Under the pieces are notes generated by a model. That model saw nothing but the letters and a program-made list of their open reading frames with translations, did no database searches and was not told the origin of the DNA. Below are positions 5,478 to 11,218 of a stretch of DNA of 64,000 nucleotides, piece after piece. Origin of the DNA: an uncultured Poribacteria bacterium (GTDB lineage: Bacteria > Poribacteria > WGA-4E > WGA-3G); the NCBI GenBank assembly GCA_951813565.1, contig OX638351.1, positions 960,001 to 1,024,000 of the forward strand. Reading direction: 5' to 3'. The stretch's first letter is position 1. Every line of letters begins with the position of its first letter. The position numbers were made by a program, and so were the translations under genes.

Positions 5478-5691
5478 ACGGTTCAGGTGCCGAAGTACGG
5501 AGAATAGGGAAGCGCGGTGAGAATCCGCCACGGCCCCGCCACTGTGAACGATTGATTGCCCTCAAAAAGAGGGAATTTCCGCTGGCAAAACCACTGTCAA
5601 AGGTTGATGGGAAGGGACAGCGGACTTTGTAGCGCAAGCTTTGCTTGTAAGCTACACTAAAATCGGAAGTCAGGAGACCTGCCTGAGTCGT
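5478..5691 (+). promoter_or_regulatory. Cobalamin riboswitch
   Basis: AGGGAAnnnGGTGAGAATCC, GCCCCGCCACTGT, CCACTG...GGGAAGG and B12 box AAGTCAGGAGACCTGCC. Confidence 0.93.
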
Positions 5692-5882
5692 GTTTCACGC
5701 ATCTGCTTTCGCGGGAAAGCGGTGGAACAGAGCACAGCAATATCCTGTCAGATATAGAATACACATACCAAATATAGTATTCGACCTTTATACAGAACCA
5801 CAGGATCAGATTTTACAGCGTGTCGCCTTTCCCCTTCTTTCCAATGAAAGTAGGGGTTTCTTGTTTCATTACGGAGGTTTTA

Positions 5883-7181
5883 ATGAACAAAGTTTTTTTC
5901 TTTAGGCGACTTTTCTCGTTCCGTTCAAATCATAAACTGCATTCGCTCTTATTTATCGGTGCGATGCTCTTCACTTTCCTTGTTAGTTCCGCTCTTTCAC
6001 AAACAGACGTCCAAAATCTTGCCGTTGTTGTGAATGCGCTGAATAATGCCGACTTGAATGTCATCTCTTCCCTTTCAATCATTGATCTTGATGAACCAAA
6101 TCTGAAACGTGCCGTTGACGAAAAAGTTATTACTATCGGTGATGTGCCGAGTGATATTCTGATTCATGGACATATCGCATACATATCGCGTTTCGATTGG
6201 CTTTCTGGCATGTATTCCGATGGAATCCTAATTATCAATCTTGAACGGCGAGAGATTATTGGGGTGATTCCAATTCAATCCGGTGCTTACCCACAAAATC
6301 TTGCCCTCGTTACCCCAAATAAGATATATGTTACCTGCGATAATGTTCATCAGGTGCATGTCGTTGACATTGCCAGTCGGAGTGTTACCAAAATTATTAC
6401 GGATGCTTCTTTTAAGAAAACGACGGGTATTACAGTTCTCAACGGGAAGGCTTATGTGACCAATCCGGCTTGGGAATGGGATGCACAAACCGGTAAATCT
6501 GTCTATTACCAAAGCAGTGTCACAGTGATAGATACACAGACAGACTCGGTATTGAGTTCTATACCTATGCCCATAAATGCTGGCGGAATTCTCAATGATG
6601 GTGACTCCACAGTTATTGTAAAGACAACGGGTGATTATGGACAAATTTCTGGAAAACTGGTCCTAATTGATGCGACTACAGATGAAATTATCAGGACGGT
6701 TGACCTTAAGATGACTCCAGGGTCTTTTGCAATCAATTCACAGAAACAGTTGTTTATTCAGGGAGGATGGCAAAACCCTGGCTTACTCATCTATGATGTG
6801 CCAACCCAAAAATGGATTCGAAACAAAAATGACAGACTCACTGAGTTCGGTGGAGGTTCTGGGATGACTTTCGGGGAAAATGGGAATCTCTATATCACTA
6901 AACCTGACTGGACGGGCGGTGGATTATCTACTATGCTTGTCATGGGACCAGACGAGACGCTTATCAAAACATACCAACTCGGACACGGTACTGATAAGGT
7001 AGCACTTGCACAAATTGTGCCACGTGTTGAAGATGTGGACGATGATGGGTTTGTCAACATAAAAGACCTTATGATTGTCGGTCAGAATTTTGGTCAAAGT
7101 GGTCCGGGAATAATTGGCGATGTTAATGGGGATGGCGAGGTGAATATCCTTGACTTAGTCCTTGTTGCTCAGCAATTCTAA
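5883..7181 (+). CDS. Secreted YncE/BtuG-like beta-propeller with C-terminal dockerin-like domain
   Basis: GGAGG RBS, signal peptide, KIYVT/KAYVT propeller blades, tail DVDDDGFVNIKDL...GDVNGDGEVNILDLVLVA. First gene after the riboswitch. Confidence 0.7.
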   Translation: MNKVFFFRRLFSFRSNHKLHSLLFIGAMLFTFLVSSALSQTDVQNLAVVVNALNNADLNVISSLSIIDLDEPNLKRAVDEKVITIGDVPSDILIHGHIAYISRFDWLSGMYSDGILIINLERREIIGVIPIQSGAYPQNLALVTPNKIYVTCDNVHQVHVVDIASRSVTKIITDASFKKTTGITVLNGKAYVTNPAWEWDAQTGKSVYYQSSVTVIDTQTDSVLSSIPMPINAGGILNDGDSTVIVKTTGDYGQISGKLVLIDATTDEIIRTVDLKMTPGSFAINSQKQLFIQGGWQNPGLLIYDVPTQKWIRNKNDRLTEFGGGSGMTFGENGNLYITKPDWTGGGLSTMLVMGPDETLIKTYQLGHGTDKVALAQIVPRVEDVDDDGFVNIKDLMIVGQNFGQSGPGIIGDVNGDGEVNILDLVLVAQQF

Positions 7182-9242: not shown

Positions 9243-9565
9243 TTATGTGAAACATTTGGGAATAACAACACATTACATTTACTCTTTTTTTATCTATAGT
9301 AGATTTTACAATTACTTATACACTGCAATAGGCGAGGTTAGGAAACCTCCAAATCAAGAAATCAACGCTACAAATCATGGCGAATGCCATACGCGCATTC
9401 GTCTTGAGGCATTTGGCCAAATCAACGCTGAATACGCTTTTGGTATTCAGCGGGTATGAATGCCTTTTGGCATTCCCCGTATGGCATTCACATTAAACGC
9501 AGCAAACCTATAAAGAACTGTAAAGGTAATTTAGATTTCACTATATATTGTGAGGACATATATCA

Positions 9566-11218
9566 ATGAAACATATCCGATTTTTTTGTCTGTTATTATT
9601 GCTTATCGCGCTGCCAATCAGTGCAGTGATGGCTGAATTAAATGTCGTCTGGGTTCGGACAGGTGTAGTACTTGAATCTAAAACGAAAGGGGAACTTGGT
9701 TCGAAATTTGAAGTTGCTGTTGGACAGCAAGGGACATCGTTTGAGACTGTTTCGCCTGTAAAACTTGATGAGAAACGTGTCTTACTGGAATTGGCATGGC
9801 ATCCGAACAAAAGCTATCGGTTTCGCACGGGGAAAAGCATAACAGAAGCCACTTCACCGCTAAAACCTGTCCCTTACCTCATCCGTACGGTTGACTTAGA
9901 TGGGCTTTTGTCGTTGATGGAAAATCTACAGCAACCTGCAAAGCCGACTGCAATAGCATTTGGACACGGAACAGGGACACACAAACTTGCGGTTGCGACG
10001 GATAGAGGGCATCTCGCGATTCTCCACCCTATAACAGGTAAAACACTTTGGAAAACGCGTATTTCGGAAGGTTATGTTAGGCACATCACATTTAGCCCTG
10101 ACAATACACTGCTCTACATCGGTGAGCAGGCGGTGGACGGATTTATCTATTGTTATGAATTGACTGGCGCGACCCCGAAACTTCGCTGGAAATACCGAAC
10201 GGCAGACGATATTGAGACCTCAACGCCAACTAATCCTGAGAGTGTCTATGCGTGGGTGAGTTATCCCGGTCAGTCGTGTATGCGGTCGCTACCTAATGGT
10301 GATCTGTTAGTCGCAGGCGTGCATTCGTGGAGACTCAATGACACATCTCAAAAGCGGTCAATGCTCTATCGGTTTGACGCTAAAACTGGAGATGTCAAAT
10401 GGAAATGGCCTCATGAGAAGGCTATGCAGAAAATTTTCCGCTGGTTTGATGTTAGTGCTGATGGTAAGACACTCGCGCTTGCAACGGATGAGAGTGGTAA
10501 GGGAAATGGAACGCTCTCTGTGATTGATGTGGAGACAGGAACAGAAAAGTGGCACGCAGATATCGAACCGCTCGCGCCCTATTTCAAAGGGGTTACTTTT
10601 TGGCGCGGTGTCAGCATGTCACCAAATGGGAAGTTTGTCAACGTTACAACGGACGATGGACGCGCTTTTATTTTTAGTGCGGACAATCCTGAACCAATTT
10701 GGAAACAGAATTTGGCAACACCTATGGAGATAAGCGGTGTGCCAATTATTGCGACGACCGGCACGATTGGTGCAACGGATGATGCAGCACTCTTTGTGAC
10801 AGGTGATACATATATCCCCTACCATCTTCAAAAGGGGGCACAACGTCCGTCTACGATGCATCCAAACGGAATGACGGTTTTCGCTTATTCGTGGAGTGGC
10901 GAAAAGGTTTGGCAGTGGAAACTTGAGAATATGCCGCAAGGTTTACGGATCGATACCATGGGACGATATGCTGCGTTAGGTGTTTCTAAACGGAGCCAAA
11001 ACCCGAACGAGAGTCTCCACGGCGTTTCGGTGTTTGACCTAACAGCAGAGGGTAGTGGGTTGACGAAATATCTCTATACCTACCGCACGGAGGGACAACT
11101 TCCCTACGATACGCTTGCTATTAGTGCTGATGGATCGCTCATCGCTATCGTTGAGATACCTATTGTGATGCCTGATGAGACGCTGCGTGGTAAAAATCGG
11201 GTGCATGTGTTGTATTGA
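9566..11218 (+). CDS. Secreted PQQ-like/WD40 beta-propeller protein
   Basis: Signal peptide; repeated TGKTLWK/TGDVKWK/TGTEKWH Trp motifs. Confidence 0.75.
   Translation: MKHIRFFCLLLLLIALPISAVMAELNVVWVRTGVVLESKTKGELGSKFEVAVGQQGTSFETVSPVKLDEKRVLLELAWHPNKSYRFRTGKSITEATSPLKPVPYLIRTVDLDGLLSLMENLQQPAKPTAIAFGHGTGTHKLAVATDRGHLAILHPITGKTLWKTRISEGYVRHITFSPDNTLLYIGEQAVDGFIYCYELTGATPKLRWKYRTADDIETSTPTNPESVYAWVSYPGQSCMRSLPNGDLLVAGVHSWRLNDTSQKRSMLYRFDAKTGDVKWKWPHEKAMQKIFRWFDVSADGKTLALATDESGKGNGTLSVIDVETGTEKWHADIEPLAPYFKGVTFWRGVSMSPNGKFVNVTTDDGRAFIFSADNPEPIWKQNLATPMEISGVPIIATTGTIGATDDAALFVTGDTYIPYHLQKGAQRPSTMHPNGMTVFAYSWSGEKVWQWKLENMPQGLRIDTMGRYAALGVSKRSQNPNESLHGVSVFDLTAEGSGLTKYLYTYRTEGQLPYDTLAISADGSLIAIVEIPIVMPDETLRGKNRVHVLY

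Follow-up and report, generated by a model that had tools for sequence, protein, structure and literature searches.

An uncultured Poribacteria bacterium carries, behind a cobalamin riboswitch, three co-oriented open reading frames (ORFs) that probably encode, under repression by B12, the capture and S units of an importer of cobamide of the energy-coupling factor (ECF) class, driven by an EcfT-EcfAA′ motor encoded elsewhere in the genome. The genes, which we call P1 (5883-7181, 432 amino acids), P2 (7323-9242, 639 amino acids) and P3 (9566-11218, 550 amino acids), lie 3′ of the riboswitch on the plus strand of the window, a 64,000-nucleotide stretch of contig OX638351.1 (assembly GCA_951813565.1, forward strand, positions 960,001 to 1,024,000). 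A preliminary description of the window had reported a riboswitch ahead of three co-oriented genes, and the match to RF00174 (90.3 bits) together with the ORF map confirms it. The same description found no btuB, btuFCD or ecfA/T gene adjoining the three; none adjoins them in the window, where the neighbors are tRNA genes upstream and a split AlbA/RecG-like gene downstream.

A riboswitch-headed gene cluster in Poribacteria

The riboswitch-P1-P2-P3 arrangement is not a product of chance, because 75 of 80 Poribacteria loci show the elements in that order; these are the best 80 of 118 confirmed matches and are kin rather than independent observations, and the five exceptions are three contig ends, one locus without P3 and one with a partial P1. 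Close relatives of P2 (57-84% identity) come from Candidatus Poribacteria records. Among whole genomes, P2 was detected in 40 of 41 and the riboswitch in 40 of 40 relatives, and for 37 of 39 relatives RF00174 lies ahead of P2 on the same strand, at a distance of 2.2 kb or less; linkage of P2 homologs to the riboswitch, which the preliminary description had proposed as a check, holds in these relatives. Where P1 has moved off, as in G026, G029 and G035, a riboswitch remains 169-412 bp before P2, and a second copy heads P1 in the two of these three genomes that were fetched. P3 turned up in 138 of 140 genomes from the main Poribacteria order and in none of 11 genomes from other Poribacteria orders (E values up to 1e-40 in both sets); P2 was likewise not found in these 11, nor was the EcfT subfamily discussed below, with only 22-43-bit matches in three of them. 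Three of the 12 riboswitch loci fetched from the other orders head BtuB-like receptors, called by their best match to TIGR01779, which is below cut-off on partial ORFs. At L203:605-1905 and L205, also from other orders, the cobalamin riboswitch heads a ribonucleoside-triphosphate reductase gene.

The riboswitch aptamer (5468-5700, plus strand, E 4.8e-21) covers the full length of the model (positions 1-189), scores far above the gathering threshold of 31.5 bits and is the sole match found in the 5.43-Mb, 95% complete genome that was searched. It includes the L5 loop (5535-5539), and a P13-type hairpin just 3′ of it (5703-5722, plus strand) has a complementary loop with which L5 is predicted, from fold and motif, to form a kissing loop; the L5 motif and the complementary hairpin loop are both present in 78 of 79 riboswitch loci. 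Further downstream, a hairpin followed by a U-rich tract (5831-5866, plus strand) resembles an intrinsic terminator and stands directly before the P1 ribosome-binding site (5873-5877, plus strand), which can be read directly from the sequence. A hairpin with a U-tract recurs in 74 of 78 leaders, mostly as the counterpart of this one, and, judged by sequence, it is likely the expression platform, which would act by transcription attenuation; the 5831-5866 hairpin escaped a simple terminator scan. We looked for a conserved antiterminator and could not establish one: pairing reached −10 kcal/mol in just 22 of 70 leaders. Upstream, a candidate sigma-70-like promoter with an extended −10 element (5424-5452, plus strand; 10 of 12 consensus positions and the TG extension) ends 16 bases 5′ of the riboswitch; it comes from a consensus scan only, which found 16 sites against 12.0 expected in shuffled sequence.

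The three genes are separated by gaps of 141 bp (7182-7322, between P1 and P2) and 323 bp (9243-9565, between P2 and P3). The former holds a genome-wide short repeat with about 140 genomic matches at its peak and the latter holds genome-wide repeats with up to about 240; since these gaps are repeat-filled here and shrink to as little as 13 and 16 bp, respectively, in relatives, the riboswitch and the three genes likely form one operon. Short intergenic repeat families with roughly 80-240 genomic matches each also occur at 5247-5467 and 11219-11425.

P2, P3 and a probable ECF motor

P2 begins as a lipoprotein, with a lipobox cysteine (Cys17) that is invariant in 25 of 25 Poribacteria rows, has seven predicted membrane helices from residue 412 on and has no match in Pfam or NCBIfam. 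The AlphaFold2 model, built on 123 alignment rows (predicted local distance difference test score, pLDDT, 91.5), divides the plus-strand product into three immunoglobulin (Ig)-like domains (25-104, 106-253 and 255-410), an extra helix (412-434) and a six-helix, S-component-like core (442-639, nucleotides 8646-9239). The best match of the core in VIA is YkoE (5EDL; Z 12.7, root-mean-square deviation 2.8, 169 residues aligned, 14% identity), and the same region also retrieves RibU (Z 11.6), CbiM (10.9), 4HZU_S, 3P5N and 4HUQ_S. Since the Z score is moderate for a helical bundle, the fold assignment draws mainly on six S-components agreeing and on the surrounding genes; with this proviso, an ECF S-component fold is predicted for the membrane domain, and the lipoprotein with an S-component-like membrane domain that had been proposed from the window survives as a fold prediction. 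CbrT and BtuM are not among the 50 VIA matches listed, but the library holds representatives only and this excludes nothing. The ectodomains match the Ig domains of pilins, cohesins and glycosidases in VIA and also resemble integrin Ig domains, and a Foldseek search with whole P2 returned only multi-Ig proteins (template modeling, TM, score of about 0.15). At the sequence level, the YkoE family PF09819 does not match P2 itself and matches 6 of 47 S-domains of the P2 family weakly (best E 2.6e-4), with one relative at 16.3 bits against a cut-off of 25.2, and one S-domain matches the MptD S-component model; atlas clusters, which are leads only, place P2 with its own type (0.90) and a PF09819 cluster (0.85). 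Matches of the P2 profiles to IrtA (E 0.5 or worse) were rejected as hydrophobic chance.

S-components carry an AxxxA-type motif of small residues in helix 1. The corresponding positions of P2 hold small residues in 120 (position 452) and 122 (position 456) of 123 rows, and E562, R600, W606, Y607 and Y619 are near-invariant in the same alignment. No cysteine is conserved in the core (position 583 is a cysteine in 14 of 123 rows), and no conserved histidine stands out there. Because only 52 of 123 rows show a lipobox-like pattern and only 84 have the first Ig domain, the core of the family is Ig2-Ig3-helix-S; by analogy with S-component topology, the Ig domains would lie on the outer side of the membrane as a result of the extra helix. 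The family comprises 375 representatives at 50% clustering (E up to 0.001), or 128 at E up to 1e-30; its named members, from the 3 of 10 clusters looked up that carried a name, belong to Planctomycetota, Firmicutes and Candidatus Oleimmundimicrobium, and no relative was found among 72,556 plasmid records.

Outside Poribacteria, P2 relatives stand beside an ECF motor. A metagenome scan seeded with non-Poribacteria rows gave 302 confirmed matches, of which the best 80 were kept; 12 were set aside as Poribacteria-type (11 by score or by the presence of P1, and L132 by its genus g7 context), leaving 68 loci in 18 clusters at 50% identity, 34 of them in one mostly human-gut cluster. In the 26 well-flanked loci (at least 3 kb upstream and at least 4 kb downstream; 27 less L132), EcfT lies within 4.5 kb of the P2 relative in all 26, a fused EcfAA′ in 23 and P3 in 23. 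Counted by cluster, EcfT is found in 16 of 18 (the other two are contigs that end early), P3 in 13, a TonB receptor in 12, CobN in 9, ChlI/D in 5 and CbiZ in 2; BtuR, CbiK, CbiD, CbiG and BtuF/BtuC-like genes are further neighbors. P1 is absent from all non-Poribacteria loci. At L146:7090-9393, a P2 relative adjoins a 767-residue protein in which a C-terminal EcfT domain follows about 480 unassigned residues.

The genome containing the window has a single EcfT, paired with a fused EcfAA′ (G000:C1, about 3,907,900-3,910,400), about 2.9 Mb away from the operon and with no S-component beside it. EcfT is present in 41 of 41 genomes, in one copy in 40 and two in the other, and it never adjoins P2 in the 40 that have both. 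Against 53 of 55 operon EcfTs, this orphan EcfT gives 118-193 bits (the other two, which are truncated, give 65-72), and against solved EcfTs at most 46 bits; it groups with the operon EcfTs in a quick tree with four outgroups only (Shimodaira-Hasegawa-like approximate likelihood ratio test, 96). No other S-component was found to claim the motor: BioY, PF12822 and PF07155 gave nothing over cut-off in 25 genomes, nor did CbiM (PF01891) in 5. The preliminary description had cast P2 as a solitary or shared-ECF transporter, and it was probably wrong on both counts, given the S-AA′-T-propeller operons outside the phylum and an orphan EcfT of the same subfamily. The simplest reading of these sequences would be a dedicated (group I-like) ECF module whose operon has been split in Poribacteria. 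The motor genes also scatter: family f4 has EcfT without the ATPase, in G021 a long ORF (L194:5918) takes the usual place of the EcfAA′ gene ahead of EcfT, and G005 (L195) has a lone EcfT in inverted orientation. The orphan pair lies directly downstream of a gene for a 662-residue B12-binding radical S-adenosylmethionine (SAM) protein (G000:C1, about 3,907,900-3,912,400; L099:9942-14380, minus strand), a neighbor that recurs in 5 of 11 other Poribacteria genomes fetched and is doubled in two.

P3, described beforehand as an exported pyrroloquinoline quinone (PQQ)-like propeller, bears out that description: a signal peptide and an N-terminal domain are followed by a PQQ_2/WD40-type β-propeller (PQQ_2, E 1.2e-15). 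Its N-terminal domain is homologous to the first Ig-like domain of P2 (hhalign, P2 26-107 against P3 23-101, probability 92.4, E 5e-7). P3 falls in no BamB or PQQ dehydrogenase family (TIGR03300, 36 bits against a cut-off of 285) and has only repeat-level matches in the PDB; its atlas matches, all under 0.9, are leads only. Three tandem P3 paralogs precede CobN and the ECF operon at L103:103-5200, which is what one would expect if binding proteins had diversified toward different ligands.

P1, cobamide use and competing explanations

P1 has a signal-like hydrophobic stretch (residues 19-40), a predicted seven-bladed, BtuG/YVTN-like propeller (about 43-381) and a Dockerin_1 domain (383-431). 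Pfam-level matches to DUF5074, YncE and YVTN are weak (DUF5074, 22.3 bits, under a cut-off of 27.2), whereas the P1 profile retrieves BtuG1, 2 and 3 with E values from 4.5e-17 (BtuG1, 8BLW) to 8.5e-10, after an archaeal surface-layer protein (1L0Q, E 1e-20). With the predicted model (pLDDT 87.4), BtuG chains fill the first 16 ranks listed by Foldseek and score Z 35.9-32.5 in VIA, against 33.6 for 1L0Q and at most 31.7 for unrelated propellers. By profile and predicted fold, then, P1 resembles the B12-binding BtuG propellers, and the YVT-type, BtuG-like propeller with a dockerin-like tail that had been suggested for it stands. BtuG2 is reported to have a net charge of −18 (PMC10404256) and the BtuG pocket to be aromatic and acidic (10.1101/2024.02.16.580637, PMC10404256); the P1 propeller is acidic (net charge of P1, −10; family median, −18) and has 16 conserved aromatic positions. 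The first cysteine comes no earlier than residue 152, and P1 thus has no lipobox. The dockerin-like tail is probably a generic envelope tag, because it is common in the genome (34 matches) and missing from some P1 orthologs. At L083:2871-5781 and L085:2130-5208, the P1 that has split off carries an added FlgD-Ig/secretion-tail domain behind the dockerin, and a cohesin-domain gene comes next, which makes a cohesin-dockerin display system in Poribacteria possible. The idea of a propeller working with the transporter, also put forward earlier, holds in part: P1 is BtuG-like, but the constant partner of P2 is P3, and P1 is missing from the loci outside Poribacteria.

The host appears to depend on cobamides made elsewhere. 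CobN and CbiC were found in none of 41 genomes, and CobS, CobU, CbiM and methylmalonyl-CoA mutase in none of 5, with controls that matched. On the side of B12 use, there are MetH, a CarH-like regulator, a corrinoid protein accompanied by RACo and radical-SAM proteins carrying B12-binding domains, and a PduO-type adenosyltransferase occurs in 5 of 5 genomes. An intact cobamide is favored as the substrate because the cell uses cobamides but can neither build nor complete them. We posit that when cobamide is scarce, the terminator would not form and the three genes would be read; exported P1 would bind the cofactor as BtuG does; P3 and the Ig-like domains of P2, facing the periplasm, would hand it to the S-core; and the S-core would dock on EcfT through the small-x-x-x-small motif of helix 1 and topple upon ATP hydrolysis. 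Once inside and adenosylated by the PduO-type enzyme, the cofactor could serve MetH, the corrinoid methyltransferase system, the B12 radical-SAM enzymes and the CarH-like regulator. None of the 11 TonB receptors of the genome is encoded at the riboswitch, and the operon therefore leaves passage across the outer membrane unexplained. A more specific version, which we offer tentatively and regard as doubtful, is that P3 binds cobamide as its dedicated task and docks on the Ig-like arm of the S-component, making the system a widespread, unnamed ECF subfamily with an ABC-like capture stage, fed in Poribacteria by a BtuG-type super-binder without a B12-regulated BtuB.

Several observations weigh against a cobamide importer assembled in this way. 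The P2 core is closest to YkoE, which carries thiamine, not B12, and VIA itself warns that Z scores for helical bundles below about 13, such as this 12.7, are ambiguous; sequence profiles of whole P2 and of its S-domain found no solved S-component; and 1L0Q both tops the P1 profile list and scores among the BtuGs in VIA. The search for alternative clients of the orphan motor covered only three further S-component families and CbiM. Gene context is not uniform either: in genus g7 (G033, G039) only P1 stands behind the riboswitch, and P2 and P3 are kept but lie apart from it and from each other; G147 (88% complete), G150 (91%) and G036 (80%), of the same order, have EcfT and no P2 that we could find; and in G147 unrelated genes follow the riboswitch and P1, which speaks against strict coupling. 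Outside Poribacteria, just 6 of 23 loci, belonging to 2 of 10 clusters, have a co-oriented cobalamin riboswitch upstream (Rfam was run on 25 larger loci, 23 of them non-Poribacteria, and many of the operons extend past the fetched flank; the gut cluster supplies five of the 6 positives, and the 25 showed no riboswitch of another class), and the presence of CobN in 19 and ChlI/D in 18 of 68 loci would fit a metal or metalloporphyrin substrate as well. In the host, short MetE-like proteins, present in 5 of 5 genomes, could lessen the need for B12, and a locus with no riboswitch (L100:6125-12258; G000:C1, about 4.812-4.818 Mb) encodes a TonB receptor with BtuF-like and BtuC-like proteins. That receptor matches heme models slightly better than B12 models, all below cut-off, and the locus probably serves heme or iron uptake, with B12 also possible. 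At g7-type loci (L088:4720-8371, L090, L116, L117 and L132), P2 stands behind genes for a thiamine-binding protein (PF01910), an ATPase of the ABC-2/CcmA type and a membrane multiheme cytochrome c, and the two of these loci that were scanned showed no riboswitch; this ATPase was rejected as a motor for P2, being of the ABC-2/CcmA type and adjoining the multiheme cytochrome.

These points can be assembled into other explanations. The ECF system could import cobalt, a metal chelate or a metalloporphyrin, B12 repression then reflecting a role upstream of B12 supply. CobN, ChlI/D and TonB receptors in 9, 5 and 12 of the 18 outside clusters fit this view, as do CbiK/D/G neighbors at L152 and L155, the label "cobalt" attached to PF09819, and the extra N-terminal helix, with which residues 418-636 of P2 align to CbiM (4M5C, Z 10.9). 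We nevertheless consider it unlikely: genomes with no CobN or CbiC (0 of 41) and no CobS or CobU (0 of 5) could not build cobalt into B12 and yet keep the system, no conserved histidine stands out in the S-core, and a BtuG-like propeller is co-regulated. In other lineages, CobN/ChlID neighbors make a metal or metalloporphyrin substrate possible. P1 alone might instead catch B12 while P2 and P3 import another molecule needed at low B12, such as a lower-ligand base, methionine or a related metabolite; the riboswitch does stay with P1 rather than P2 in G033, G039 and G147, P1 is missing from every outside locus, and the nearest fold is that of YkoE. This, too, is improbable, since P2 keeps its own riboswitch in G026, G029 and G035, a riboswitch lies directly before P2 in L155, CbiZ and BtuR neighbors point to corrinoids, and there is no CobS or CobU with which to use a lower-ligand base.

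The remaining two alternatives dispense with the ECF motor or with transport altogether. That P2 is a solitary, BtuM-like carrier, and that the remote EcfT-AA′ serves an undetected S-component, would accord with the separation of EcfT from P2 in each of the 40 Poribacteria genomes, out of 41, that have both, with the three genomes that have EcfT and no detected P2, and with the report that solitary BtuM supports uptake (PMC6072759). It is very improbable in view of an EcfT adjacent to P2 in 26 of 26 well-flanked outside loci, an orphan EcfT of the same subfamily, the absence of BioY, PF12822 and PF07155 over cut-off in 25 genomes and the lack of a family-wide cysteine. Least credible is a B12-controlled surface or sensing structure with no transport function: the P2 ectodomain is predicted to fold like pilin, cohesin and integrin Ig domains, and P1 is like an archaeal surface-layer propeller with a tail common in the genome, but P2 relatives are constantly linked to EcfT and ECF ATPases. 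A B12-repressed cobamide importer is the explanation that we favor.

Implications and comparison with known systems

Many B12-dependent diderm bacteria are stated to have no known inner-membrane B12 importer (PMC6072759), and the P2 system, built on a family with no Pfam or NCBIfam model, is a concrete candidate for the missing one. Poribacteria have been proposed to import B12, and the passage of PMC5087111 that makes the proposal names only TonB/ExbBD genes; the P2-P3 system is near-universal in the main order of this phylum, whose members are dominant sponge symbionts. If the more specific version, with P3 as a dedicated binding protein, is correct, the system would be an exception to the textbook view of ECF transporters as having no soluble binding protein, and it would add another way for B12 to cross the inner membrane, in bacteria that range from sponge symbionts to inhabitants of the human gut. 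An S-component tethered to a lipid anchor through an ectodomain of about 390 residues would offer a direct test of the ECF toppling model, and a BtuG-like propeller outside Bacteroidota would extend the B12 "super-binders" to another phylum. A search of the open-access literature turned up no account of such an operon or of an S-component fused to Ig domains; subscription journals and supplements lay outside it, so that an entry in a comparative-genomics table is possible. Immediately downstream of the operon, an AlbA_2 domain (11426-11746) and a RecG-C/HATPase_c_4 domain (11719-12645) in overlapping frames probably belong to one frameshifted gene.

Among characterized transporters, the preliminary description had named BtuM and CbrT as cobalamin-importing S-components for comparison. 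The closest fold among the VIA representatives is instead that of YkoE, and the P2 family has no counterpart of BtuM Cys80. The group I ECF transporter YkoEDC (YkoE, 5EDL, PF09819) shares with the P2 system the best structural match to the core and, in the loci outside Poribacteria, the gene set of an S-component, a fused double ATPase and a T-component. P2 differs in having a lipoprotein signal, an ectodomain of three Ig-like domains and an additional helix, and its system in a dedicated propeller gene, a B12 rather than a thiamine pyrophosphate riboswitch here and a motor that is remote in Poribacteria. The cobalt transporter CbiMNQO offers another seven-helix S unit (CbiM, 4M5C), whose alignment with P2 includes the extra helix; the orphan EcfT, in contrast, gives only 15 bits against solved CbiQ, PF01891 was not found in 5 genomes, and there is no corrin pathway to feed. 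CbiMNQO is described as using an accessory extracytoplasmic part, CbiN (PMC7689651).

The proposed substrate brings other systems close. P2 and BtuM have in common an S-component fold (predicted for P2) in a diderm and a B12 context, whereas the P2 family lacks a conserved cysteine and travels with EcfT/AA′. CbrT is not known to have an ectodomain. ECF-CbrT of Lactobacillus delbrueckii, which takes up cobalamin and cobinamide (PMC5997447), resembles the P2 system in ECF class and proposed substrate, but CbrT is discussed there with a shared (group II) module and as inactive alone, the orphan EcfT scores only 35 bits against L. delbrueckii EcfT, and no P2-profile match to it was seen. BtuM, for its part, is reported to be a protein of about 22 kDa that uses Cys80, has no ECF module and has both termini in the cytosol (PMC6072759). 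P1 shares with BtuG1, 2 and 3 of Bacteroides (8BLW, 8BAI, 8OKV, 3DSM) seven predicted blades (TM score of about 0.8 over the target, 18-23% identity), an acidic character and B12-riboswitch control, and is set apart by the missing lipobox, the dockerin-like tail, the lack of a btuB or other TonB receptor gene in the operon and the equal score of 1L0Q. The features looked for of BtuM, of PF09819 and of BtuG proper (its anchor and its partner) are not those of the system described here, and P2 with its partners would be a variant of the ECF transporter.

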